Shown: in pieces, positions 14,289 to 32,434 of the stretch | How the letters are laid out: each line of letters opens with the position of its first letter | Position numbering within the stretch: position 1 is the first letter of the stretch | NCBI GenBank assembly: GCA_964626635.1 | Contig: CAZVFY010000002.1 | Coordinates: forward strand, 72,415 to 136,414 | Length of the DNA: 64,000 nucleotides | Direction of reading: 5' to 3' | Source: an uncultured Candidatus Saccharibacteria bacterium | GTDB lineage: Bacteria > Patescibacteriota > Minisyncoccia > Phycocordibacterales > UBA918 | Made by a program: the position numbers and the translations under genes | Notes under the pieces: model-generated | What the model was told of the DNA's origin: nothing | Databases searched by the model: none | The model's input: the letters and a program-made list of their open reading frames with translations, nothing else

Positions 14289-15278
14289 TTAGATGGGTTC
14301 TTTAGACCAGCGCTGAGTCGCGGTATCAAACGTACCAATCTTTACCCGATGAATGCGCCACGCGAGGCCAACTGTGCTCAGTTGCATCGCGATTACACAG
14401 GCGAGTGTGCGCATGTACGTACCTGAACTGCAGCTGCAACGAAAGTGTAGAATAGAGTAGGTTGCTGGCAATAGTGTGTCAGACCATGTATCGTCTCGCA
14501 CTTGCTCCCAATCTGTTCGTACATCCGTGCGGCGGAAGTCAGCACCCAGGACTTTGCGATCATCAGTCACTGGCGGCATGGTGTTGATGTTTGCAAGTGC
14601 GGTTTCGGCAATCGTGGCGCGGTCGAGCTTGTCACTGCCTACATATTCTAATGAGTAAATGGTTGATTGTCGCTCTGGGATCGTTATCTCGTGCAAGCGA
14701 TTTTCTAGCGCCCACTGAAACAAAGGTTTTCCATTAACCGTTTTGCTCGAGTACGCCGGATAGGGAAGAGAGATCTGCCCAGTGAGTTTTGCACATATTG
14801 GTCTTATTTCATTCTCAAGAATCGAAGGCGATAAAAATGCGCGCTGCGCGCTAAGAGTAGGGGAAGGCATTTTTATCGCTTTCGATTCTTTCTCTGCTGG
14901 CGAACTGGTCAGACCGGTATCACCAAGCCTTCCCCCAGTCTTAGGCCGAAGGCCGCTTGGTGATACCGGCATGGCCGGGTGAGTCTCATTTGTATCCGTG
15001 TACAGCCGCCCCAACACATCATGCGTGTCCGATCCGATGCCCAGCAACACCGAAAATTCGTATGCTTTGTCTAGTCCCAAATACAACTCTTTTCTCTTGC
15101 ATTCCTCGCCAACCAGCACCAGTAATTGCCCAGTAGCCATCGGATCCAGTCGGCCGGCGTACGTTAGGGGAATGTCAGCGGGAATACCGGCTGTATCCCG
15201 CCACGCTTCGAGGCAGGCGAGCGGCGTTTGCCCCAATTGCTTATCAAGTACGACTCGAGACGGGTACGGTGATGACAT
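14289..15278 (-). CDS. truB: tRNA pseudouridine synthase (TruB family)
   Basis: VVLDKQLGQT, YAGRLDPMATGQL (catalytic Asp) and DKAYEF..LGIGSDTHDVLG motifs. A Ser/Pro/Ala-rich insertion sits mid-protein. Confidence 0.7.
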   Translation of the reverse strand: MSSPYPSRVVLDKQLGQTPLACLEAWRDTAGIPADIPLTYAGRLDPMATGQLLVLVGEECKRKELYLGLDKAYEFSVLLGIGSDTHDVLGRLYTDTNETHPAMPVSPSGLRPKTGGRLGDTGLTSSPAEKESKAIKMPSPTLSAQRAFLSPSILENEIRPICAKLTGQISLPYPAYSSKTVNGKPLFQWALENRLHEITIPERQSTIYSLEYVGSDKLDRATIAETALANINTMPPVTDDRKVLGADFRRTDVRTDWEQVRDDTWSDTLLPATYSILHFRCSCSSGTYMRTLACVIAMQLSTVGLAWRIHRVKIGTFDTATQRWSKEPI

Positions 15279-18837: not shown

Positions 18838-19695
18838 ATGACTACCCGTTACATCTACAGCAACAGTTACATTCGCGCCCTGGAGGGGATGTTGCTAACG
18901 CGTGCAGATGTAGACCGGTTAGTCTCGATTGAGAACGAAGCAGACTACACGCGGGCACTCAATGACACCTTTCTGGCGCCGCACCTACGCGACGATGACG
19001 TGGACGCAGCGTTGATCGCATACGTGCAGTCTGGCCGTGCTTTATTACGAAGGATCGCTCCCACACCAGCGATCGCGGAGTTGTTGTGGTTGCAAGACGA
19101 CATGCGCGACCTGCGCCTAGCGGCCAAAGAGATCGCGCTCGGTGAGGACCCAAGTGTCGAGGTAGAAGAAGTGTTACTCGCGCATCCACGCTGGACGCCA
19201 GCGTACACCGAAGCCATCTCGCTCCTCCAAAATAGCCAGGTCAAGCAAGCCGAGCAAACCCTTGATCTGCTCTACGAAGCGACCATCGGGCGCCGTCTGA
19301 GCGAAGCTACTGGCTTCCCAGTGACTACCGCCTTGCTCGACGCCAAGCTTGCTGCACTCTGGTACAAACAAGCCCTCCGTTCGAATGATGAAGCACGCAT
19401 CGATGATACGCGTACTAGTCTGCGGGCGATCCCGTATTTTGTGGCAGCGGTAGAAGCATTCGACAATGGGGATGTCTACCCGCTCAGTGTCGCGCTGGAG
19501 CTGTACCCTTACCAGGCAGCCAAGCGTACCGTTACTGGCGCCTTTGGGTTCGGGGTGTTGGTGCAGTTCTATGCTCGCATCGTTACCTCGGCGACGGTCG
19601 TACGCACCCTCAAAGTCGCTGTCGCCGCCACTACACCAAACGAAGTAAAACGAGATCTAATCGCGCCGTACACGGCCCTCATGTATGAATTCTAA
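18838..19695 (+). CDS. V/A-type ATPase subunit C (d)
   Basis: 285 aa helical protein, in operon position. Confidence 0.7.
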   Translation: MTTRYIYSNSYIRALEGMLLTRADVDRLVSIENEADYTRALNDTFLAPHLRDDDVDAALIAYVQSGRALLRRIAPTPAIAELLWLQDDMRDLRLAAKEIALGEDPSVEVEEVLLAHPRWTPAYTEAISLLQNSQVKQAEQTLDLLYEATIGRRLSEATGFPVTTALLDAKLAALWYKQALRSNDEARIDDTRTSLRAIPYFVAAVEAFDNGDVYPLSVALELYPYQAAKRTVTGAFGFGVLVQFYARIVTSATVVRTLKVAVAATTPNEVKRDLIAPYTALMYEF

Positions 19696-20014
19696 CCACC
19701 ACATCGCTATCATTGGGCCGACCGATATGGTGGCAGGCTTTCGGACGCTCGGCATCGAGGCGATCAACGCGACGTCTGGCATTGAGGCGCTCGCGGCGCT
19801 ACGCAGGCTTCGTCAAAATCCTGATCGACAGTACGCCGTGGTGTGTCTGATCGAAGAACTGTTTACAAACATTGATCCAGTTGAATTCGAGAAGGCCACG
19901 ACGGGCGCACTCCCCGCAGTCGTGCTGTTGCCAGGCACCGGTGGCGCAAGCGGTGTCGCGCTCGCGCGCCTGAGGCGCTTAGCCGAACGAGCGGTTGGTT
20001 CAGCCATCATTTAA
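19685..20014 (+). CDS. V/A-type ATPase subunit F
   Basis: 109 aa. HIAIIGPTDMVAGFRTLGIEAIN. Confidence 0.75.
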   Translation: MNSNHHIAIIGPTDMVAGFRTLGIEAINATSGIEALAALRRLRQNPDRQYAVVCLIEELFTNIDPVEFEKATTGALPAVVLLPGTGGASGVALARLRRLAERAVGSAII

Positions 20015-20040
20015 TTACTTACTCATTTATTACACTTACT

Positions 20041-21852
20041 ATGTCTACCGATACCACTAAATCAACCAGTAAAACTACTTTTACACCCGGCACCATTGTC
20101 CGCGTGACCGGACCGCTTGTCCGAGCGAGCGGTATGCGCGACGCGCGGCTCTACGAACTGGTCGAAGTGTCCGACGAGCGGCTGATGGGCGAGATCATCG
20201 AACTATCTGATGATGTGGCGTCAATCCAGGTGTACGAAGACACCGCTGGGGTTGGTCCCGGAGACGTAGTGCATCGCACCGGACGGACGATGTCGGTAGC
20301 GCTCGCGCCGGGCTTGCTCACCTCAATCTATGACGGCGTACAGCGTCCGCTGCGCGACATCGAGGCGGCTGCCAACGGTCCGTACATCAAGCGCGGGATC
20401 GAAGCTGAACCAATCGACACAAAGAAAAAGTGGGCGTTCCAGGCTGTTGCGAAGAAGGGCGCAACGGTCATCGGCGGAGACGTCCTTGGTACGGTGCAAG
20501 AAACCTCAGTCATCGAACACAAAGTCATGGTGCCGCCGGACATCAGCGGGGAACTGCTCGACATCAAAACAGGTGACATGACCGTCACTGAGCCAATCGC
20601 CACTATTAAAACCGAGGACGGCGACATCACCGTACCGATGCTACAGTACTGGCCGATCCGCAACGCGCGACCAAAGACCGCCAAAATTTTTCCGACCGAA
20701 CCACTGAAAACCGGTGGCCGATCAATCGACACTTTCTTTCCAATCGCTAAGGGTGGCGCTGGGTGTATTCCTGGACCATTTGGTGCCGGCAAAACCGTGA
20801 CGCAGCAATCGATTGCCAAGTACTGTGACGCCGAGATCATCGTATACATCGGCTGCGGCGAGCGCGGCAACGAGATGACCGAGGTACTGTCCGAGTTCCC
20901 GCACCTCGTTGACCCGAACACCGGCGAGCCGCTGATGAAGCGCACCATTTTGATTGCGAACACCTCAAACATGCCAGTCGCCGCGCGTGAGGCGTCCGTG
21001 TACACCGGGATCACCATCGCCGAGTATTACCGCGATATGGGGTACAACGTCGCGCTGATGGCTGACAGTACCTCACGGTGGGCCGAGGCTATGCGTGAGA
21101 TCTCAGGACGATTAGAAGAAATGCCTGGTGAGGAAGGGTACCCAGCGTATCTATCATCAAGAACGGCCGAATTTTACGAACGAGCTGGGATGGTACAGAC
21201 ACTCGGTTCAAAAGAGCGTACTGGCTCACTGACAGTGATCGGCGCGGTGTCGCCTCCTGGTGGCGACCTCTCCGAGCCAGTGTCACAAGCAACCCTGCGG
21301 GTCACTAAAACCTTCTGGTCGCTTGATGCCGGCTTGGCGTACAAAAAACACTTTCCGAGTATCAACTGGCTAGTGTCGTACTCACTTTACGTAGAAAACT
21401 TCAAGGGGTACTGGGCAGAACACATCGCGCCGGACTTTGCTGAGATCCGCGCGATTGCGATGACACTCCTCGAGCAAGAATCATCACTCCTCGAGATCGT
21501 CCGTCTCGTCGGGATGGAATCTCTCTCGGCGTCAGACCGACTAGTACTTGAGGTGGCGCGGATGATCCGCGAAGACTACTTGTTCCAGGATGCCTTCTCG
21601 CCAGACGATGCGTACACGCCGCTTGATCGGCAGTACGGCATGCTGAAATCTATCATTGCCTTTTATACGCACGGTCAAGACGTCGTCACAGCCGAAGAAT
21701 TTGACTTTACCAAGTTCACCAGCATCCCGACCTTTAGCGAGGTCGCTACCCTCAAAGACAAACTTGACTGGAAAGCCGCTGACTTTGAAGCGTTCCAAGA
21801 TCGCGTCAAAACTGACATTATGAGCCTGCGCACCAACGCACCCACTAACTAA
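20041..21852 (+). CDS. atpA: V/A-type ATPase catalytic subunit A
   Basis: Walker A GPFGAGKTV. 603 aa, including the non-homologous insert typical of A subunits. Confidence 0.95.
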   Translation: MSTDTTKSTSKTTFTPGTIVRVTGPLVRASGMRDARLYELVEVSDERLMGEIIELSDDVASIQVYEDTAGVGPGDVVHRTGRTMSVALAPGLLTSIYDGVQRPLRDIEAAANGPYIKRGIEAEPIDTKKKWAFQAVAKKGATVIGGDVLGTVQETSVIEHKVMVPPDISGELLDIKTGDMTVTEPIATIKTEDGDITVPMLQYWPIRNARPKTAKIFPTEPLKTGGRSIDTFFPIAKGGAGCIPGPFGAGKTVTQQSIAKYCDAEIIVYIGCGERGNEMTEVLSEFPHLVDPNTGEPLMKRTILIANTSNMPVAAREASVYTGITIAEYYRDMGYNVALMADSTSRWAEAMREISGRLEEMPGEEGYPAYLSSRTAEFYERAGMVQTLGSKERTGSLTVIGAVSPPGGDLSEPVSQATLRVTKTFWSLDAGLAYKKHFPSINWLVSYSLYVENFKGYWAEHIAPDFAEIRAIAMTLLEQESSLLEIVRLVGMESLSASDRLVLEVARMIREDYLFQDAFSPDDAYTPLDRQYGMLKSIIAFYTHGQDVVTAEEFDFTKFTSIPTFSEVATLKDKLDWKAADFEAFQDRVKTDIMSLRTNAPTN

Positions 21853-23334
21853 TTGCATATGAAAGAATATACTTCAGTCAAAGAACTCGCCGGACCACTG
21901 ATGGTCGTTGATGGCGTGGAAGGAGCCAAATACGAAGAGCTCGTCGAGGTGCAGGTACCAGGCGAAAAGCGCGTGCGCTACGGTAAAGTGCTGGACACCA
22001 GCAAGGGACGCGCGGTGGTGCAGATGTTCGATGCCACGGCCGGCATGACCACCGCTGGAACGCGCGTGCGATTCCGGGGCGAGACCCTCAAGCTCGGTGT
22101 GTCAGAAGACATGCTCGGGCGAGTATTTACCGGGGCGGGCGAAGTGGCCGATGGTGGCCCGGCGATCGTGCCAGAGGCGCGACTTGATATCGCTGGTGAA
22201 CCGATCAACCCGTACTCACGAGAATTCCCCAACGATTTTATCCAGACCGGGATCGGTTCGATCGACGTAATGAACACGCTCGTGCGTGGGCAAAAGCTAC
22301 CGATTTTCTCGGGGGCTGGGTTGCCACACGCGCGGCTGGCGGCGCAGATCGCGCGGCAAGCAACTGTGAGTGACGGCGCGAACTTCGCGATCGTATTTGG
22401 GACGCTCGGGGTGTCATTTGAAGAGGCAGAATACTTCCGTCGCGAATTCGAAGAGGCGGGCGCGCTCGAGCGCAGTGTGCTGTTTATCAACACCGCAGCT
22501 GACCCAGTGGTCGAGCGTGTCTCGACGCCGCGCATGGCGCTAACGACCGCCGAGTACCTGGCGTTCGAAAAAGGTATGCACGTCCTCGTGATCTTGACTG
22601 ACCTCACCAACTACTGTGAAGCACTACGCGAGGTGTCGAGCGCGCGCAAAGAAGTCCCCGGGCGTCGCGGGTATCCTGGATACTTGTACACTGACCTGTC
22701 GACGATCTACGAACGCGCTGGGCGCGTCAAAGGCAAAGAGGGAACTATCACCCAGATCCCCATCCTGACTATGCCCGACGACGACAAAACCCACCCGGTC
22801 CCCGACCTCACTGGGTACATTACCGAAGGACAGTTCGTCGTATCACGCGAACTTTACCGCAAAGAGATATTCCCGCCAGTTGATGTGCAGGGGTCACTGT
22901 CGCGACTCTGGGCGGCTGGTGTTGGCGAGGGCAAGACCCGCGCTGATCATAAGAACCTCAAGGACCAGCTTTTTGCGTCGTACGCCGTTGGTACCGAAGT
23001 GCGCGAGCTAGCCGTGGTGCTGGGCGAGGCGTCACTAGACGACAACGATCGCGCGCACTTACGGTTTGCCGATGCCTTTGAGAAAGAGTTCGTCGGCCAA
23101 GGCGAATACGAGAACCGTAGTGTCGCTGAGTCACTCGATATTGGGTGGAAATTATTGCGGATGCTACCACGCAATACCCTCAAGCGTGTAAAAGCCGCCG
23201 AGATTGACCAGTACATGGGGGCCGAGGCACCCGAGGCAGATGCAGCAGCTGATCAGGTGTCAGAAGGTGAGGTGGCTGCAGGGGCGCCAGAGCCAAGTAT
23301 GATGGGGGATAACAAAAACCAACCAGTTGCGTAA
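21853..23334 (+). CDS. atpB: V/A-type ATPase subunit B
   Basis: 493 aa alpha/beta family member without a canonical P-loop, directly after A. Confidence 0.95.
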
Positions 23335-23342
23335 TACCTATC

Positions 23343-23975
23343 ATGGCAATCTTAAAAATCAGTCCAACGCGGGTCTCACTCCTCAAACTAAAAAAGGAGC
23401 TCAAGACCGCCAAGAAAGGCCATAAACTCCTCAAGGATAAACGCGACGGTCTCGTCAAGAAATTCATGAGCGTGATCTACGAAGCTAAGGCGACTCGTGA
23501 ATCAGTCGAGGAGCGCCTGGGGTCAGCATTCGCGAGTTACCAGCGCGCCAGTATGGTCGCCAGCCCCGGCGCGCTCGAGGTGGCGACTAAATTGCCTGGT
23601 GCGTCGCTCTCTCTCGGCGTCAGTGTCAAGCGTGTTATGTCAGTCCCGGTGCCGGAATTTACGGTCGACAAGACTGGGGAGGCGGCCGTGTACAGTCAGG
23701 CCGATACGCCAATCGAACTAGATACCGCCATCACAAAATTTGATGATGTGATCGTTGATATTCTGACACTCGCGGCACTCGAGAAAACCGCCGCGAACCT
23801 GGCCGAAGAGATAGAGAAGACGCGCCGCCGCGTATCCGCCCTCGAGAATATCCGCATTCCGAACCTGCAAGACACGATTAAATTCATCACCATGCAACTG
23901 GATGAGCGTAACCGGGACGCGGTGGTGTCGACGATGCGAGTGAAAGCAATGATTGTTGCCAAGGAAAACGCCTAA
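23343..23975 (+). CDS. V/A-type ATPase subunit D
   Basis: 210 aa coiled-coil central stalk protein, last gene of the operon. Confidence 0.85.
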   Translation: MAILKISPTRVSLLKLKKELKTAKKGHKLLKDKRDGLVKKFMSVIYEAKATRESVEERLGSAFASYQRASMVASPGALEVATKLPGASLSLGVSVKRVMSVPVPEFTVDKTGEAAVYSQADTPIELDTAITKFDDVIVDILTLAALEKTAANLAEEIEKTRRRVSALENIRIPNLQDTIKFITMQLDERNRDAVVSTMRVKAMIVAKENA

Positions 23976-23979
23976 AACA

Positions 23980-24156
23980 ATGAGTGTACCCATCATACAA
24001 TTTAATTACAAAACCGCTGTAATCTTACTATTGCTTGTTATTGTAGTATTGCTAATTTGGATCGCATTCGTCTTGGATGATATATATTGGTTAGTTACTG
24101 AAACTAATTTAAATACAGAAATTTTATTCAACAGAACGGTTGAGTCAGATAACTAA
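23980..24156 (+). CDS. Small single-TM protein, hypothetical
   Basis: 58 aa (MSVPIIQFNYKTAVILLLLVIVVLLIWIAFVL...) in an AT-rich stretch after the V-ATPase operon. Weak support. Confidence 0.25.
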   Translation: MSVPIIQFNYKTAVILLLLVIVVLLIWIAFVLDDIYWLVTETNLNTEILFNRTVESDN

Positions 24157-24984
24157 TATAATCTCTTCAGGTAGCGTCAATTCGCGGTTATCTAAATCTG
24201 AAATTTGCAACAACGTCGTCGCCCATACATCTGCATCTGTCGCGTTCTGCGCGGTGAGGTACACGGCGTCTCTCACTGTCGCTTCGGCAACAATATGATG
24301 TTGTTCGCTAGTACCGCGACTAGCGTCACGTACGGGCCAGCGGCGTTTAAGCGGACTACTGGCGGCGAAGGCTTGATTATGTAAGTGCGTCGTGCCGACG
24401 ACCACGCCCGGACGAAGTGGGTCTTCGAGATAAATTTCGACTGGCTCGCCATTGTGGTGCGTCGCGTAAATATCGCCACCACCATTGATCAAAAATTGTT
24501 CGAGGCCGTGCTGGTGGTGCAGGGCTGTAGCGAGTAAATCAATCAGATATCCTTTCCCATACCCCCCAATATCGACGTGCGTGTGACCGAGTAGTTGGAT
24601 CTCGCCGTCGGTCATAATGATGCCGGTGGTTGGATTGCCCGGCGTGCGATCGGCCGCCCCGTCGTAGCGGAACGAGTAATTGGCGTCATAGCCATTGGCG
24701 ATTTGGATATGGCCGGTCAGGATGTTGAATAGCCCGTTAGTGCGGCGGTAGTATTCGATCCCGGTGTGGAGGAGGGTGCGAGTCTCGTCGCTTGGCGACG
24801 CGAGCACCCGGTCGTGGTTTAGGCGACTGATCAAACTGTCAGTCTTGAACCGGGAAAATTTGTTTTCAAATTCATTTACGATCAAGCGGCAGAAACGTTC
24901 CGTTTCTGCCGCTTGTTCTTTAGTTTGAGTGTCCCAGATCTCAATCCACCACTGGGTGCCGAGGGCAGGGAAATTACATTGCAT
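24145..24984 (-). CDS. apbE: FAD:protein FMN transferase (ApbE family)
   Basis: ApbE motifs DSLISRLN, DIGGYGKGYLID, INGGGDIYA and HHIV. 279 aa. Confidence 0.7.
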   Translation of the reverse strand: MQCNFPALGTQWWIEIWDTQTKEQAAETERFCRLIVNEFENKFSRFKTDSLISRLNHDRVLASPSDETRTLLHTGIEYYRRTNGLFNILTGHIQIANGYDANYSFRYDGAADRTPGNPTTGIIMTDGEIQLLGHTHVDIGGYGKGYLIDLLATALHHQHGLEQFLINGGGDIYATHHNGEPVEIYLEDPLRPGVVVGTTHLHNQAFAASSPLKRRWPVRDASRGTSEQHHIVAEATVRDAVYLTAQNATDADVWATTLLQISDLDNRELTLPEEIILVI

Positions 24985-24992
24985 GCAGATCT

Positions 24993-25538
24993 CTATGACT
25001 GCGCGCGCATTGCGGCCACTGCCTCGTTAAACGCTTCACTCGTGAGGGAAGCGCCACCAACGCGTGAAAGATTAATTTCGTTTAAACGTTTGCCTACTAC
25101 CTCGCTCGTGTATGCTGCATCAAACGCTTGATGGCTAGGGGTGACACCAGCCCCGCCATCGTACGTAACATCTGCGTCTACCACTACCCGATCTTTGAGT
25201 GTAAGAGAAACGAGAATCTCATGCTCGGTGCGACGTGGAGTAAAGTACGACGCTTCAGCCGTGAGGATGCGCTCATCGTCGGTGGGGTCAAACGCTTCGT
25301 CAGTTATCCTCGCGCTATCATTTGGTACCATCGCTTCTTCATCAACTGGCGCTCCGCGCACTGCGCTCGCTTCTTCGGCTGCTTCTACCGCTTCCCGGGC
25401 CGACTCCACGGCAGTGATTGGTGTAGTGTTTGTCTCATCGCTACTGGTACCGCCGATCATGACAAACGCCAACACTGCGCCGATTACTATTACAACTCCA
25501 AAAATAACTATAGGCATATAAAAATTAATTAACTTCAT
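24993..25538 (-). CDS. Membrane-anchored FMN_bind-like (NqrC/RnfG-like) domain protein
   Basis: N-terminal TM helix (PIVIFGVVIVIGAVLAFVMIGG) and an acidic linker. The C-terminal roughly 85 aa resemble the FMN_bind fold and end in RVGGASLTSEAFNEAVAAM, cf. canonical DxxSGAT(I)TS. The start is uncertain between 25517 and 25583. Confidence 0.45.
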   Translation of the reverse strand: MKLINFYMPIVIFGVVIVIGAVLAFVMIGGTSSDETNTTPITAVESAREAVEAAEEASAVRGAPVDEEAMVPNDSARITDEAFDPTDDERILTAEASYFTPRRTEHEILVSLTLKDRVVVDADVTYDGGAGVTPSHQAFDAAYTSEVVGKRLNEINLSRVGGASLTSEAFNEAVAAMRAQS

Positions 25539-25553
25539 GCTAGTATAGCGATC

Positions 25554-27134
25554 ATGAGACAACTTGTACATATACCGTATCACGCATGGATGTATGCGAT
25601 GAAGAAAATTGATGCGACAGGTATGTATCGCATTGTATCGGTAACACTTGCTTTGCTAGTCCTTTGCAGCTTACTCGCAAGTAGTATTGGGCAACTGGCG
25701 TATACTCTGCCCGCGCTGTTTACTTCTTTGGTACTCGCAGTGCTGGTGGCACTGGGGCTTAATAAAGTGATCGGAATGCTGTTGCGAGTTCCAGTTAATC
25801 AAGAATCAGCCCTTATTACCGGTCTCATTTTGTTTTTTATGATGATACCAAGCGCCAACTTGGTCGAGAACTGGTACCTGGTTGCAGCAGTGGCGCTGGC
25901 CATTCTCTCGAAGTACTTAATTGTGTATCGTCGCCAACACATAGTAAATCCGGCGGCGGCTGGTGCTGTCGGTCTTGTACTCATCATCGGTGGAGTAAAT
26001 GTAGTACAAGGTACGAGCTACAACACAGACATTTTTTCTTGGTGGGTGGCCAACCCTATTTTGTTTTTGCCAGTCCTTTTGCTGGGTGCAGCCGTAGTTC
26101 AAAAAATTAGAAAATGGCCGGGAGTTTTGGCGCTAATAATTGTTGGTTTAGTGGTATTTGTGTATGAGTCGCTCACGTTTGGGCTTTCGGCACTGTCTGC
26201 GACACAACTTTTCTTTGTTTCGTTTCCGACGCTTTTCCTTGCGTTTTACATGTTTACTGAGCCGACCACGATGCCGCCGCGAAAATGGCATCAGGTAACC
26301 TACGGGGCTCTCGTTGGTGCACTGATGAGCACGACGCTCTTTGCGCCTTACCTTGCAATGACGCCAGAGCTGGCGTTGGTGCTAGGTAACGTATATGCGT
26401 ACAGCTTTCGAGCGAGGCGTAAGCTGTACCTCACATTAGTCGAAACACGATCACTAACGCGCAATGTATTAGAGTTTGTTTTCAAGAAGCCAACAGACTT
26501 TTATTTTCGAGCCGGACAATATCTGGAATGGATGTTACCGCACGAAAAAGCAGACGATCGCGGTGCGCGTCGCTATTTTACGATAGCGTCGAGCCCGACC
26601 GAAGACGTTGTACGACTGGCTCTAAAAGTGCCAGAAAACCCAAGCACGTACAAACAATCTTTGACTGATATGAAAGTCGGTGAACAACTAATTGCGAGCC
26701 AGCTTGCCGGAGACTTTCTATTGCCTACTACACCTCAGTACATGCTCGGGCTGATTGCTGGCGGTATTGGCATCACTCCTTTTCGAAGCCAGCTGCGGTA
26801 CTTACATGATCAGGGGCGCATAGTCGATACTGTGCTATTTTACTGTGCGCCTACGAGCGCTGACCTTGCGTACAAAGATGAGCTTAAAGAATACCAGCCT
26901 GACCTTTGTCTAGTTCCAGTGCTTGACTCAACTGAAGATAATCAAGATAAAGATGATGTAATCGAAGGGTATCTCACAACAGCATCACTCACCAAGCATG
27001 CACCAGACTATCTTGAGCGGCACTGGTATTTATCCGGCCCTCCAGGCTTGGTAAATGCTTACAAAAAGCTTTTACTGCAAGCGAAAGTGCCGCGGCGCAA
27101 TATCAAGACTGATTATTTCCCGGGACTTGCGTAG
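25554..27134 (+). CDS. Membrane oxidoreductase: RnfD/NqrB-like polytopic domain fused to an FNR-type FAD/NAD(P)-binding reductase domain
   Basis: About 8 TM helices containing HIVNPAAAGAVGLV (an FNPAL-like motif). The C-terminal domain carries RRYFTIASSP (RxYS FAD motif), GGIGITPF (NAD(P) binding) and a C-terminal YLSGPPGLV. Alternative starts at 25590 or 25599 are possible. Confidence 0.55.
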   Translation: MRQLVHIPYHAWMYAMKKIDATGMYRIVSVTLALLVLCSLLASSIGQLAYTLPALFTSLVLAVLVALGLNKVIGMLLRVPVNQESALITGLILFFMMIPSANLVENWYLVAAVALAILSKYLIVYRRQHIVNPAAAGAVGLVLIIGGVNVVQGTSYNTDIFSWWVANPILFLPVLLLGAAVVQKIRKWPGVLALIIVGLVVFVYESLTFGLSALSATQLFFVSFPTLFLAFYMFTEPTTMPPRKWHQVTYGALVGALMSTTLFAPYLAMTPELALVLGNVYAYSFRARRKLYLTLVETRSLTRNVLEFVFKKPTDFYFRAGQYLEWMLPHEKADDRGARRYFTIASSPTEDVVRLALKVPENPSTYKQSLTDMKVGEQLIASQLAGDFLLPTTPQYMLGLIAGGIGITPFRSQLRYLHDQGRIVDTVLFYCAPTSADLAYKDELKEYQPDLCLVPVLDSTEDNQDKDDVIEGYLTTASLTKHAPDYLERHWYLSGPPGLVNAYKKLLLQAKVPRRNIKTDYFPGLA

Positions 27135-27139
27135 TGTTG

Positions 27140-27811
27140 CTACCAGTTGATGGGCGAATAGCCGTGCTCCACCAAGTATGCATTACATTTTGAAAAATGC
27201 CGATTCCCAAAAAAGCCTTTGTCGGCCGAAAAGGGAGACGGATGCGGGGAGGTAAGTATACGGTGTTTGGTCTCGTCAATCAGTTCTGACTTACTGATCG
27301 CGAACTTACCCCACAGTAAGAACACAACGTGTTCGCGTTCGCGAGAGATAGTGCTGATAACCGCATTGGTAAACGTTTCCCAGCCTAGTTTTTGGTGACT
27401 ACCTGGTCGGCCTTTCTCGACTGTCAGCGTGGCGTTGAGTAGCAATACCCCTTGCTTAGCCCAGTTGGTCAGGTCGCCGCTGGTACGCTGCGTTGCAGGT
27501 ACGCCGGTGTCAGACTCTATTTCTTTGTAGATATTTTGGAGCGACGGGGGAACGCGAATACCGTCGGCGACGCTAAATGACAACCCCATGGCTTGGCCTG
27601 GTCCGTGGTACGGGTCTTGACCCAGGATAACTACGCGCACCTGGTCGAGCGGCGTTTGGTTAAAGGCATTAAACACCAATGGTGCTGGTGGGTAGACCGG
27701 CGGGTCGGCGATCAGGTAACTAGCGCGGACTTCATTCGTTAGATTTATAAAATACTCCTGCTCGAACTCATTCGATAGCACCGTTTTCCAGGATTCGTGA
27801 ATCTTGACCAT
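27140..27811 (-). CDS. ung: Uracil-DNA glycosylase (family 1)
   Basis: GQDPYHGPGQAMGLSFSV and HPSPFSA motifs. Confidence 0.9.
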   Translation of the reverse strand: MVKIHESWKTVLSNEFEQEYFINLTNEVRASYLIADPPVYPPAPLVFNAFNQTPLDQVRVVILGQDPYHGPGQAMGLSFSVADGIRVPPSLQNIYKEIESDTGVPATQRTSGDLTNWAKQGVLLLNATLTVEKGRPGSHQKLGWETFTNAVISTISREREHVVFLLWGKFAISKSELIDETKHRILTSPHPSPFSADKGFFGNRHFSKCNAYLVEHGYSPINW

Positions 27812-27835
27812 GTATATGCAGTATACTGAAACGAT

Positions 27836-28189
27836 ATGAAAGACGCACGTCGCCGCAGTATCGCCAAAGCCCTCACGTGGCGCGTGATTGCGACTACGAC
27901 TACCATGGCGCTCGCGTACGCCGCTACCGGTGATCTAAAGCTGGCTGGCACTATCGGCGCGCTCGACGTCGTTATTAAATTAGCGTTTTACTACGCGCAC
28001 GAACGCGCATGGGGAAGGGTGCAGTGGGGAAAAGGCACAAGGTTACAATTTTACCAGTTCCAGGAATCGCCGCCGGGCCGAAGCCGGCGATTCGGAACAA
28101 AATTTCGTAATAGTCATTGCATTCCTTTACTCATTTTTGACACCCGGGACAATAGTGCGTCCCACGCCCGGCGCAGCGGATTTTTTTAA
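27836..28189 (+). CDS. DUF2061-like small membrane protein
   Basis: KALTWRVIATTTTMALAYAATGDLKLAGTIGALDVVIKLAFYYAHERAW. The 3' end overlaps fpg and the true stop is uncertain. Confidence 0.45.
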   Translation: MKDARRRSIAKALTWRVIATTTTMALAYAATGDLKLAGTIGALDVVIKLAFYYAHERAWGRVQWGKGTRLQFYQFQESPPGRSRRFGTKFRNSHCIPLLIFDTRDNSASHARRSGFF

Positions 28190-28994
28190 TAATTGCGCCA
28201 CACCGCGAGCAGTTTGTGCCTTGTTGGCCAAAGACTTGTAGGTAGTCGGTAAAATTACCGTTCTCACCGCCAGTGTCCTTAAAATGTTGAAAGGTCGTGC
28301 CGCCCACGGCAATCGATTCATTCATAACGTCACCGGCGGCTTTGCACAGTAGCGCAGCCTCGGTCTTCGTCACCCGTGACGCCCGCCTCGTCGGACGCAC
28401 TCGCGCGCGCCAGAGCGCTTCGTCTACGTAAATATTCCCGAGACCAGCGACAAATGATTGATCGAGTAGTGCTGCCTTCACGGGCGTATTGCGCTTTTTG
28501 AGTTTGGCGGTAAACCATTCACAGTCAAAGTCTGATCGGATCGGTTCGGGACCAAACGCACTGCGAGCCAGCTCGACATCCGCGGCAGTCGCGAGACGAA
28601 AGTACCCAAACAATCGCATGTCATTGAAATACAGGTGTGAGCCATCAGTGAATTCTAGGGCTACTCGGGTGTGCTTGTTCGGTAGTATCAGTGACGGCTC
28701 GCTCATGCTGTGGCCGCCACCACTCGCGCGGCCAGCTGGAGTAACATAAAAGTACTGCCCAGTCATCTTGAGGTGGGTCAAGATAAACAGATCTGCTTGG
28801 CCCTGGAACGCAATAATAAGTAGTTTGCCCACGCGGTCAATTGTCCGTATGGTTTTGCCGGCGAGTTGCGGCTGCAGACTGTCGTGCGGCTCGATCGGCT
28901 TGGGGTGGAGGGCATCGATGCGCGCAATGGTCTTGCCGCGCACTTTCTTTAATAGCTGCAAACGGACTGTCTCGACTTCGGGTAACTCGGGCAT
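28131..28994 (-). CDS. mutM: Formamidopyrimidine-DNA glycosylase (Fpg/MutM)
   Basis: Start moved to MPELPEVETV (catalytic Pro2). C-terminal zinc finger CSRCGAIIKKIRCAGRGTHYCPGC. Confidence 0.85.
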   Translation of the reverse strand: MPELPEVETVRLQLLKKVRGKTIARIDALHPKPIEPHDSLQPQLAGKTIRTIDRVGKLLIIAFQGQADLFILTHLKMTGQYFYVTPAGRASGGGHSMSEPSLILPNKHTRVALEFTDGSHLYFNDMRLFGYFRLATAADVELARSAFGPEPIRSDFDCEWFTAKLKKRNTPVKAALLDQSFVAGLGNIYVDEALWRARVRPTRRASRVTKTEAALLCKAAGDVMNESIAVGGTTFQHFKDTGGENGNFTDYLQVFGQQGTNCSRCGAIIKKIRCAGRGTHYCPGCQK

Positions 28995-29077
28995 GTTCGT
29001 ATTGTACCTGGCTGGGGGGCACAATACTAGTGATATGTACAATTTGTACACCAGTGTATTCGTGCTAGACTGTTATT

Positions 29078-30175: not shown

Positions 30176-30248
30176 TCCGCCGTAGCTCAGCGGTAGAGCA
30201 GTTGGCTGTTAACCAATTGGTCGTAGGTTCGAATCCTACCGGCGGAGC
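30176..30248 (+). tRNA. tRNA-Asn (GTT)
   Basis: Manual cloverleaf. 7-bp acceptor TCCGCCG/CGGCGGA, D-arm GCTC..GAGC, anticodon loop CTGTTAA, T-arm GTAGG-TTCGAAT-CCTAC, discriminator G. CCA is not encoded. Confidence 0.9.
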
Positions 30249-31339: not shown

Positions 31340-31591
31340 CTAAATGATAAAAAACGTTAGATAGCCAATGTACAAAGCGGCAATCGCGTACAACACAGCC
31401 CAGCCCCGCGTAATAGGTAAGTAGCGTTTGATGAACCAGTTCTGTTCGATGGTGGTATCACCTACCCGGGTAAAGCTAATAACGAGCGCTAAGCACGCAT
31501 CAATCAATACCAGTGTGGCAATAATTTCAAATAGCATAGCTACATTATAACAGTTTGAAACTCTATAAAAATTAATGGCAATACATAGCAT
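31340..31591 (-). CDS. Small 3-TM membrane protein, hypothetical
   Basis: 83 aa, hydrophobic. Confidence 0.35.
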   Translation of the reverse strand: MLCIAINFYRVSNCYNVAMLFEIIATLVLIDACLALVISFTRVGDTTIEQNWFIKRYLPITRGWAVLYAIAALYIGYLTFFII

Positions 31592-31651
31592 TATATTTTA
31601 AAACGCACGCAGCTTGGCTGCGTGCGTTTTATGTTACGTGCTACTACTTTG

Positions 31652-32434
31652 TTAACGACGTAAAATGCTGTATGGTGTCGCCTTATATGAGCGCCGTGCG
31701 GCCGATTCAACCAGGCGGTTGCTCTCGAATGCGCGAATGATTTTGTTCATCGGCCATTCGTTCAGGCCTTGTAACCACTCATCATCGTACCCCGTATCAG
31801 CCATATCAGCATTGTGATGGACAAATGATTCGTTGTGCTGATGCAACACGGCGTCCGGAATGAGGGCGAATTTGATGTCGCAGTGTTCGTGCAGGGCGGT
31901 GCCCAACTCTTCGTCTTCTCGACCGTCACCTTCGTACGAGTCATTGAATTCAACGCAATCAAAGAAGGCAGCTCGATCAATCGAAAATGCCAGCGACCAG
32001 AACTCGGTGTGTGACACTGGTTCAGGAGCGGGGAAGTACTGGCGATCAGGGTGTTCGATCGCCTCTTCTAGAATGTCATCGTAGTTCATGTCGGTCGGGG
32101 TTGATGGCAAATATAGTGGGTATGGCATCAATACCGTATCTGGCTGATGGTATCGCTTGACGGTCCGCAGCAATGTTGGTGTCACTATACAGTCTGCGTC
32201 GAGAAATAATAATACGTCACCAGTTGAGTGCTCGGCGCCAATTTGGCGTGCCGCTAGTGAATTCATGCCGCTGGCGTCAATTACTTTGGTGGTTTTGGTT
32301 GCACTGATCGCTGGGCGATCAAGACAAATAATAATGTGTTCGTGTGGGGTTCGGTCTTGGGCTTCGATAGATTTAATTTGGTTTTGTACTTGGGCGTATC
32401 GTCCTTTTACGATTGTAATGATACTAATTTGCAT
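31652..32434 (-). CDS. Glycosyltransferase family 2
   Basis: MQISIITIVKGR.. and a DAD-like motif LFLDADCI. Confidence 0.7.
   Translation of the reverse strand: MQISIITIVKGRYAQVQNQIKSIEAQDRTPHEHIIICLDRPAISATKTTKVIDASGMNSLAARQIGAEHSTGDVLLFLDADCIVTPTLLRTVKRYHQPDTVLMPYPLYLPSTPTDMNYDDILEEAIEHPDRQYFPAPEPVSHTEFWSLAFSIDRAAFFDCVEFNDSYEGDGREDEELGTALHEHCDIKFALIPDAVLHQHNESFVHHNADMADTGYDDEWLQGLNEWPMNKIIRAFESNRLVESAARRSYKATPYSILRR

Follow-up and report, generated by a model that had tools for sequence, protein, structure and literature searches.

NQR/RNF-like systems have been described as flavinylation gene clusters in which an NqrB/RnfD-type membrane domain is fused to a C-terminal NAD(P)H reductase domain, and 127 such clusters, mainly from Actinobacteria and the candidate phyla radiation (CPR), have been listed (Méheust et al. 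2021, eLife, PMC8238504). The proposed electron flow is one-way, with NAD(P)H as the donor and a covalently bound flavin mononucleotide (FMN) outside the cytosol as the recipient (PMC8238504; PMC10979944). In a 2024 AlphaFold-multimer model of the Ktedonobacter racemifer pair, a member of class 2 as defined below, the NqrC-like protein docks with its flavinylation site against the flavin site of its NqrB-like partner (PMC10979944). Here we analyze a three-gene locus in 64,000 nucleotides of contig CAZVFY010000002.1 from an uncultured Candidatus Saccharibacteria bacterium, a stretch that we call the window. Its genes encode an ApbE protein (gene 1), an FMN_bind-like protein (gene 2), and a fusion of an NqrB/RnfD-like membrane domain with an FNR-type reductase (gene 3) (Table 1). 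The locus very probably belongs to the NQR/RNF-like class. A preceding reading of the DNA (the sequence-only reading) had called this architecture not textbook, but it was already in print, and the module is a further example of a kind described bioinformatically in 2021 and 2024 and not a discovery.

The window shares the defining features of the NQR/RNF-like system. A PF03116 domain (27.9 bits) and a C-terminal PF00175 domain (E = 1.7e-14) occur in one protein, and the two immediate neighbors of the fusion gene are apbE and the gene for a membrane-anchored FMN_bind-type protein, the criterion for such partners being a position within five genes. The taxa match (CPR and Actinobacteria), and the flavinylated Thr of NqrB is lost, as has been reported for this system (PMC10979944). 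Judged by homology and conservation, the three genes are a real, conserved module. More than 5,000 homologs of the fusion (best nonself E = 7.5e-188) and 124 homologs of gene 2 indicate that the genes are real, and the three open reading frames (ORFs) of the sequence-only reading, with all the motifs that it quoted, were recovered from the ORF list and the translations.

Comparison with Na+-NQR, RNF, and other membrane reductases

Like the Na+-NQR of Vibrio cholerae, the window module combines an NqrB-like fold, an NqrC-like FMN_bind domain on a single transmembrane (TM) helix, and a dependence on ApbE, and its FNR-type module for flavin adenine dinucleotide (FAD) and NADH resembles the C-terminal part of NqrF. 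Unlike Na+-NQR, it lacks NqrA, NqrD, and NqrE. Its reductase has no 2Fe-2S ferredoxin domain and is fused straight onto an NqrB-like domain that is without the covalent-FMN loop, and electrons probably flow only outward in it, without an implied quinone step. For RNF, we used RsxD and RsxG of Escherichia coli as the comparison. The family profile of the fusion aligned with RsxD over 230 columns (hhalign probability 90%, E = 1.7e-6), and that of gene 2 aligned with RsxG only in the 20-residue motif region (E = 0.23), where its motif stands opposite TGAT. The RNF limb that runs from RnfC to riboflavin and then FMN in RnfD and on to FMN in RnfG is the nearest mechanistic analog, run in reverse. 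In contrast to RNF, the window module has no RnfA, RnfB, or RnfE and no Fe-S clusters, the flavinylation loop of RnfD is deleted, and the FNR domain stands in for the NuoF-like RnfC. No other NQR or RNF subunit (NqrA/D/E/F, RnfA/B/C/E) was found among the neighbors of the locus. MsrQ-like and PepSY-like NAD-binding fusions and NOX-type NADPH oxidases also join a membrane redox domain to a cytoplasmic PF00175 module, in many cases accompanied by ApbE and an FMN-binding protein (PMC8238504), but their membrane domains bind heme, whereas that of the window is a flavin-based homolog of NqrB/RnfD.

Table 1. Features of the three-gene locus and of its surroundings (positions in the window)
Feature	Position	Strand	Details
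Gene 1, ApbE	24145-24984	minus	279 aa
Gene 2, FMN_bind-like protein, longest ORF	24993-25583	minus	196 aa; probable true start M23 at 25517 (174 aa)
Gene 2, N-terminal TM anchor (MPIVIFGVVIVIGAVLAFVMIGG)	25449-25517	minus	AlphaFold2 helix 7-43; Kyte-Doolittle hydropathy over 15 residues (KD15) = 3.23; translation checked
Gene 2, FMN_bind-fold domain, residues 101-196	24996-25283	minus	AlphaFold model confident there
Gene 2, variant flavinylation motif LSRVGGASLTS, residues 172-182	25038-25070	minus	Predicted acceptor Ser179 (25047-25049)
Promoter-like site	25570-25542	minus	Upstream of gene 2
Gene 3, NqrB/RnfD-like::FNR fusion, longest ORF	25554-27134	plus	526 aa; probable start M13 (25590) or M16 (25599)
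Gene 3, NqrB/RnfD-like membrane domain	25623-26414	plus	About 10 TM helices, N-in/C-in; PF03116, hhalign, loop charges, AlphaFold2
Gene 3, short outside loop (GTSYNTDIFSWWVAN)	26010-26054	plus	After HIVNPAAAG; 15 residues, K+R = 0, no acceptor motif
Gene 3, TEPxTMP motif	26256-26276	plus	T235, E236, P237, and P241 invariant; aligns to LTDPVT of RsxD and RnfD
Gene 3, FNR-type FAD/NAD(P)H reductase domain	26424-27131	plus	PF00175, E = 1.7e-14
Gene 3, RRYFTIASSP, residues 339-348 (FAD)	26568-26597	plus	Translation
Gene 3, GGIGITPF, residues 403-410 (NAD(P))	26760-26783	plus	Translation
Inverted repeat	14817-14890		24-nt arms, 96% complementarity
Inverted repeat	14907-14976		22-nt arms, 86% complementarity

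Conservation of the module and its two classes

A scan of species-representative genomes yielded 80 loci (L001 to L080), or 81 with the window, from Patescibacteria, Chloroflexota, Actinobacteria, Alphaproteobacteria, Spirochaetota, and others. ApbE adjoins the fusion in 70 of the 81 loci, most of which also hold an FMN_bind-type gene with a flavinylation motif. A survey of genomic context had been suggested along with the sequence-only reading, and it found the module conserved. The divergent order of the three genes is kept in the closest relatives of the window (48 to 59% identity), among them L001, L081, L088, and L090 (48 to 55%), while in most loci the FMN_bind and apbE genes lie upstream of the fusion on the same strand.

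The loci divide into two classes of enzyme and acceptor motif. Class 1 comprises the window, L001, Saccharimonadales, Uhrbacteria, Peribacteria, and several Actinobacteria. Its ApbE has ∼285 aa, starts with A(I/L)GTxW, and carries [GA]-S-[AS] in place of the T-S-G of the others, and its acceptor motif, x-R/K-V-[SAG]-G-[SA]-S-L-T, is noncanonical in 22 of 22 loci. Cultured class 1 hosts include Agreia pratensis, Herbiconiux daphne, and Pseudolysinimonas yzui. Class 2 comprises Ktedonobacteria, Paceibacteria, Mesorhizobium, Kaistia, and others; it has an ApbE of ∼247 aa and the acceptor motif D-x-[VI]-[ST]-G-A-[TS], canonical in 30 of 38 loci. By these alignments, the window belongs to class 1, in which a noncanonical motif is paired with its own ApbE subtype. 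The covariation of ApbE subtype with motif subtype supports the pairing of ApbE and the FMN_bind-like protein as enzyme and substrate. A 554-aa ORF in L080 that could be taken for an FMN_bind-ApbE fusion was rejected as an overextended reading frame in a high-GC genome.

The window differs in part from the published description of the NQR/RNF-like system. Its FMN-binding protein is too divergent for the Pfam hidden Markov model (HMM) and has the class 1 motif instead of D-x-x-S-G-A-T, its ApbE is of the distinct ∼285-aa type whereas the published model is of a class 2 member, and its fusion gene is transcribed away from the FMN_bind and apbE genes.

The fusion protein

The membrane half of the fusion matches PF03116 (NQR2_RnfD_RnfE) just above the cutoff when the full protein is searched (cutoff, 27.7 bits) and with 30.5 bits when searched alone, and all 14 fusion relatives searched match it (best E = 4e-13). 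No other transporter family matched, which bears out the RnfD/NqrB-like assignment of the sequence-only reading. A profile search of PDB sequences reached RnfD (8ahx_D, E = 0.023) through the conserved T(D/E)PxT motif; phmmer with the membrane half against the PDB returned nothing relevant. The AlphaFold2 model has a mean pLDDT of 85. In a Foldseek search with the whole fusion, the best 50 matches all fell on the FNR domain, so that search did not probe the membrane half, and the assignment of that half draws on Pfam and hhalign.

K+R content alternates between ∼0.9 to 3.2 and 0 to 0.6 across the loops of 31 fusion proteins. This pattern points to ten membrane segments and puts the N terminus and the FNR domain in the cytoplasm, with the former flavinylation loop on the opposite side of the membrane. 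The loop that follows HIVNPAAAG (residues 129 to 137) is short, and in the hhalign alignment nothing in the fusion corresponds to the RsxD segment with the QATPL site. By this alignment, the fusion has lost the long periplasmic loop on which NqrB/RnfD proteins carry the covalent-FMN Thr in an [ST]GAT-type motif. The TEPxTMP motif is, by the same kind of evidence, the equivalent of the TDPVT motif in RnfD/NqrB.

In the C-terminal half, the sequence-only reading had recognized an FNR-type reductase. The PF00175 match and the FAD (R-x-Y-[ST]) and NAD(P) (G-x-G-x-x-P) motifs, present as RRYFT and GGIGITP, uphold this, while PF00970 (FAD_binding_6) is matched only weakly (E = 0.054). The profile of this half matches the FAD domains of NqrF and other FNR-family reductases. 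Furthermore, Foldseek retrieved the NqrF FAD domain 7qty (E = 1.2e-13, TMt 0.70), and FNR-family and NqrF FAD matches reached a TMt of 0.84.

The FMN_bind-like protein and ApbE

Gene 2 is, on modeled structure, a single-TM protein with an NqrC/RnfG-like FMN_bind-fold domain. The assignment rests on the fold and on matches of its relatives to PF04205 (FMN_bind), which 13 of 30 close relatives match (best E = 6.2e-06); the profile of the relatives had no match among PDB sequences. G176, G177, A178, S179, L180, and T181 are invariant in the 30 relatives, and the whole of LSRVGGASLTS is almost invariant in the close family. Lipoprotein lipoboxes occur in orthologs from Actinobacteria and in one from a Peribacteria genome, and class 2 proteins have MKK-type signal anchors, and we therefore take the FMN_bind-like domain to be outside the cytoplasm. 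The sequence-only reading had proposed a single-TM protein with a C-terminal FMN_bind-type domain and a variant acceptor motif, and the fold, the invariant Ser179, and the predicted outside location of the domain agree with it.

Gene 1 was identified as ApbE in the sequence-only reading, and the PF02424 search was clear (E = 9.3e-30, with the match beginning at residue 8). It also matches solved ApbE/Ftp structures in the PDB (3pnd, E = 3.5e-08). The Ser/His/Asp triad (equivalents of E. coli S254, H270, and D298) and the equivalent of T302 are invariant in 66 of 66 cluster ApbEs, including that of the window. By homology, gene 1 is an ApbE-type FAD:protein FMN transferase of the class 1 subtype with an intact catalytic triad.

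Proposed electron path and alternatives

We consider it rather probable that NAD(P)H delivers electrons outward through the module, to a covalent FMN on the extracytosolic side. In this scheme, ApbE would attach FMN to Ser179 of the gene 2 protein. NAD(P)H would reduce the FAD of the FNR domain, and electrons would pass to a putative noncovalent flavin site that lies in the NqrB-like domain close to the cytoplasm and corresponds to the riboflavin site of NqrB/RnfD. From there they would reach the covalent FMN of the gene 2 protein, docked at the outer face in the place that NqrB's own FMN would take. The covalent FMN would then reduce an extracytosolic acceptor. The net result would be the RnfC-to-RnfD-to-RnfG limb of RNF running backward, with a fused NAD(P)H dehydrogenase. 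The path is plausible because the flavins of NqrB/RnfD sit near the cytoplasm (riboflavin) and near the outside (FMN) (PMC12174285). In a fermentative, quinone-poor cell, it would serve as an outlet for reducing equivalents or for the reduction of an external substrate, for example, Fe(III).

The sequence-only reading had offered NAD(P)H-driven extracytosolic electron transfer or ion pumping as the role; the first coincides with the published model, and the second is possible, with nothing that we found supporting it. If the same three proteins also formed a redox-driven Na+ or H+ pump, its gradient could feed the V/A-type ATPase encoded next to it. RnfD/NqrB proteins are related to ammonium and urea transporters, and they have been put forward as one ion pathway for NQR and for the RNF of Clostridium tetanomorphum (PMC12174285). 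The fusion keeps the conserved acidic TEP motif, and a V/A-ATPase operon lies directly upstream in the window, L081, and L088. However, current models of NQR and RNF need conformational switches of NqrD/E (RnfA/E) together with movement of NqrC (PMC12174285), NqrD/E (RnfA/E) are absent here, and the adjacency to the ATPase is lost in L089 and L090, so that it looks like lineage synteny. We regard pumping as unlikely.

Somewhat more doubtful is a specific role as an assimilatory reductase of ferric iron or another metal that supplies the reduced metal to an importer. The VIT1 ferrous-iron transporter occurs in 6 of the 127 published clusters (PMC8238504), and other flavinylation-linked NAD-binding membrane fusions are likewise tied to iron, but no iron transporter or metal-related gene lies within ∼5 genes of the module in the window, L081, L088, L089, or L090.

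Both flavinylation and the FMN_bind-like domain would be cytoplasmic if the anchor were N-out/C-in, and electrons would then be shuttled between the FAD of the FNR domain and the membrane domain at its inner face. All 66 cluster ApbEs being signal-less would fit this, and there are precedents for cytoplasmic ApbEs with substrates in the same compartment, such as the one that acts on Klebsiella fumarate reductase (PMC12052999). In gene 2-type proteins of the CPR, moreover, the TM helix is preceded by no positive charge and followed by about one K/R, flanking charges alone being weak evidence of topology. Against it stand the actinobacterial and peribacterial lipoboxes and the class 2 MKK anchors, a C-terminal flank that is net acidic (2.9 D+E versus 0.9 K+R), and the published multimer model, which puts the domain outside (PMC10979944). 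These make a cytoplasmic arrangement quite improbable. That the genes are neighbors by chance and do not work together is scarcely credible, given that ApbE is next to the fusion in most loci across at least five phyla, that FMN_bind-type genes accompany most of these, and that enzyme and motif classes covary.

Several observations weigh against outward electron transfer as described. We found no experiment on any NQR/RNF-like member in the literature. The neighborhood, with V/A-ATPase, uracil-DNA glycosylase (UDG), DUF2061, and Fpg genes as flanks, holds no gene for an acceptor. The PF04205 HMM, which some of the relatives of gene 2 match, does not match gene 2 itself, even at E ≤ 1. The acceptor motif departs from D-x-x-[ST]-G-A-[ST], with Asp at −6 replaced by Ser and [ST] at −3 by Gly, while G-A-S is kept and invariant; in mutagenesis, an Asp-to-Ala change in the flavinylation motif had minor effects only, and Ser was accepted as the acceptor (PMC12052999). 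Finally, the cluster ApbEs (that of the window and 65 others) are signal-less, yet their presumed substrates are exported, which leaves flavinylation of an exported domain unexplained.

Should the published model hold, the module, with its two subunits, would be the smallest relative of NQR and RNF known so far. It would also rank among the few membrane redox devices of Patescibacteria, most of which have no respiratory chain, and it could explain how NAD(P)H is reoxidized, or how substrates are reduced at the cell or host surface, in these bacteria. The module is small enough for reconstitution and could serve the study of isolated NqrB/RnfD-type electron transfer. What the window adds is modest: another member, two enzyme/motif classes within the family, and the question of the signal-less ApbE, the sole part that might lead to something new.

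ApbE enzymes without export signals

The ApbE of the window has no N-terminal lipoprotein or secretion signal, with 8 residues before the first conserved strand and an ORF that cannot be extended upstream. We assessed signals by counting the residues before this strand and by Kyte-Doolittle hydropathy over 12 residues (KD12). Hydropathy over 15 residues was dropped because the E. coli ApbE control (1.99) was not set apart by it from cluster ApbEs, which reached 1.95. None of the 66 aligned cluster ApbEs has room for a signal peptide (median of 9 residues before the strand), and none of the longer N-terminal extensions among them is hydrophobic, whereas the E. coli ApbE lipoprotein control has 42 residues and a KD12 of 2.68. 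A signal is typical of ApbE and not universal, cytoplasmic ApbEs being known for cytoplasmic substrates such as the Klebsiella enzyme (PMC12052999). In the main text of PMC8238504 and PMC10979944, we came across no reference to the mismatch between a signal-less ApbE and an exported substrate.

The FMN could be attached before the substrate is exported or while this happens, the genome could encode a second ApbE elsewhere, or ApbE itself could leave the cell by a nonclassical route. Tat export was considered as a solution and rejected, because an RR pair is present, by eye, in just 3 of 11 actinobacterial lipoprotein precursors, and most precursors do not fit. One conjecture, which we hold to be improbable, is that NQR/RNF-like systems flavinylate the C-terminal acceptor motif in the cytoplasm and then export the flavin-bearing protein, with the class 1 motif/ApbE pair as a specialized version. 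It is prompted by cluster ApbEs that appear cytoplasmic and catalytically intact while their substrates are exported. If true, flavinylation before export would spare FAD export in cells without a periplasm (monoderms and the CPR).

Gene layout and neighborhood

Genes 1 and 2 share a direction, with 8 nt between them, and gene 3 is divergent from both. There is a head-to-head overlap of 30 nt between the longest ORFs of genes 2 and 3, each of which is probably overextended. For gene 2, the start of 29 of 29 aligned relatives coincides with M23, where MP leads into a hydrophobic stretch (MPIVIF in the window), and the database entry P0121, 100% identical to it, has 174 aa. Database lengths are 174 or 192 aa for gene 2 and, from gene callers, 514 (M13) or 511 (M16) aa for the fusion. 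With the shorter starts, the divergent intergenic region spans ∼70 to 80 bp and has a single promoter-like site, which faces gene 2.

The 5′ part of the ApbE coding sequence (about codons 23 to 35) contains a strong hairpin at 24880-24918 that could influence how the mRNA is translated or how stable it is. The arms are 18 nt long with 94% complementarity, the core is a perfect 15 bp, and the loop is 3 nt.

Genes for V/A-type ATPase subunits F, A, B, and D (19685-23975) lie directly upstream of apbE. After the fusion come UDG, a DUF2061-like ORF, and Fpg/MutM (27140-29051); UDG and Fpg are also downstream of the fusion in L081, L089, and L090. Many of the closest relatives retain both sides, the V/A-ATPase on one and UDG with Fpg on the other. 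Both flanks probably reflect lineage synteny and not a functional link.

Elsewhere in the window, a tRNA-Asn (GTT) gene was detected at 30176-30248, but no rRNA gene or any other RNA gene across the 64 kb. Two neighboring inverted repeats, each with 26 nt between the arms, occupy 14817-14976. A hairpin at 31599-31631 (perfect 15 bp, 3-nt loop) lies between the minus-strand ORFs 31340-31591 and 31652-32434 and is probably a terminator.

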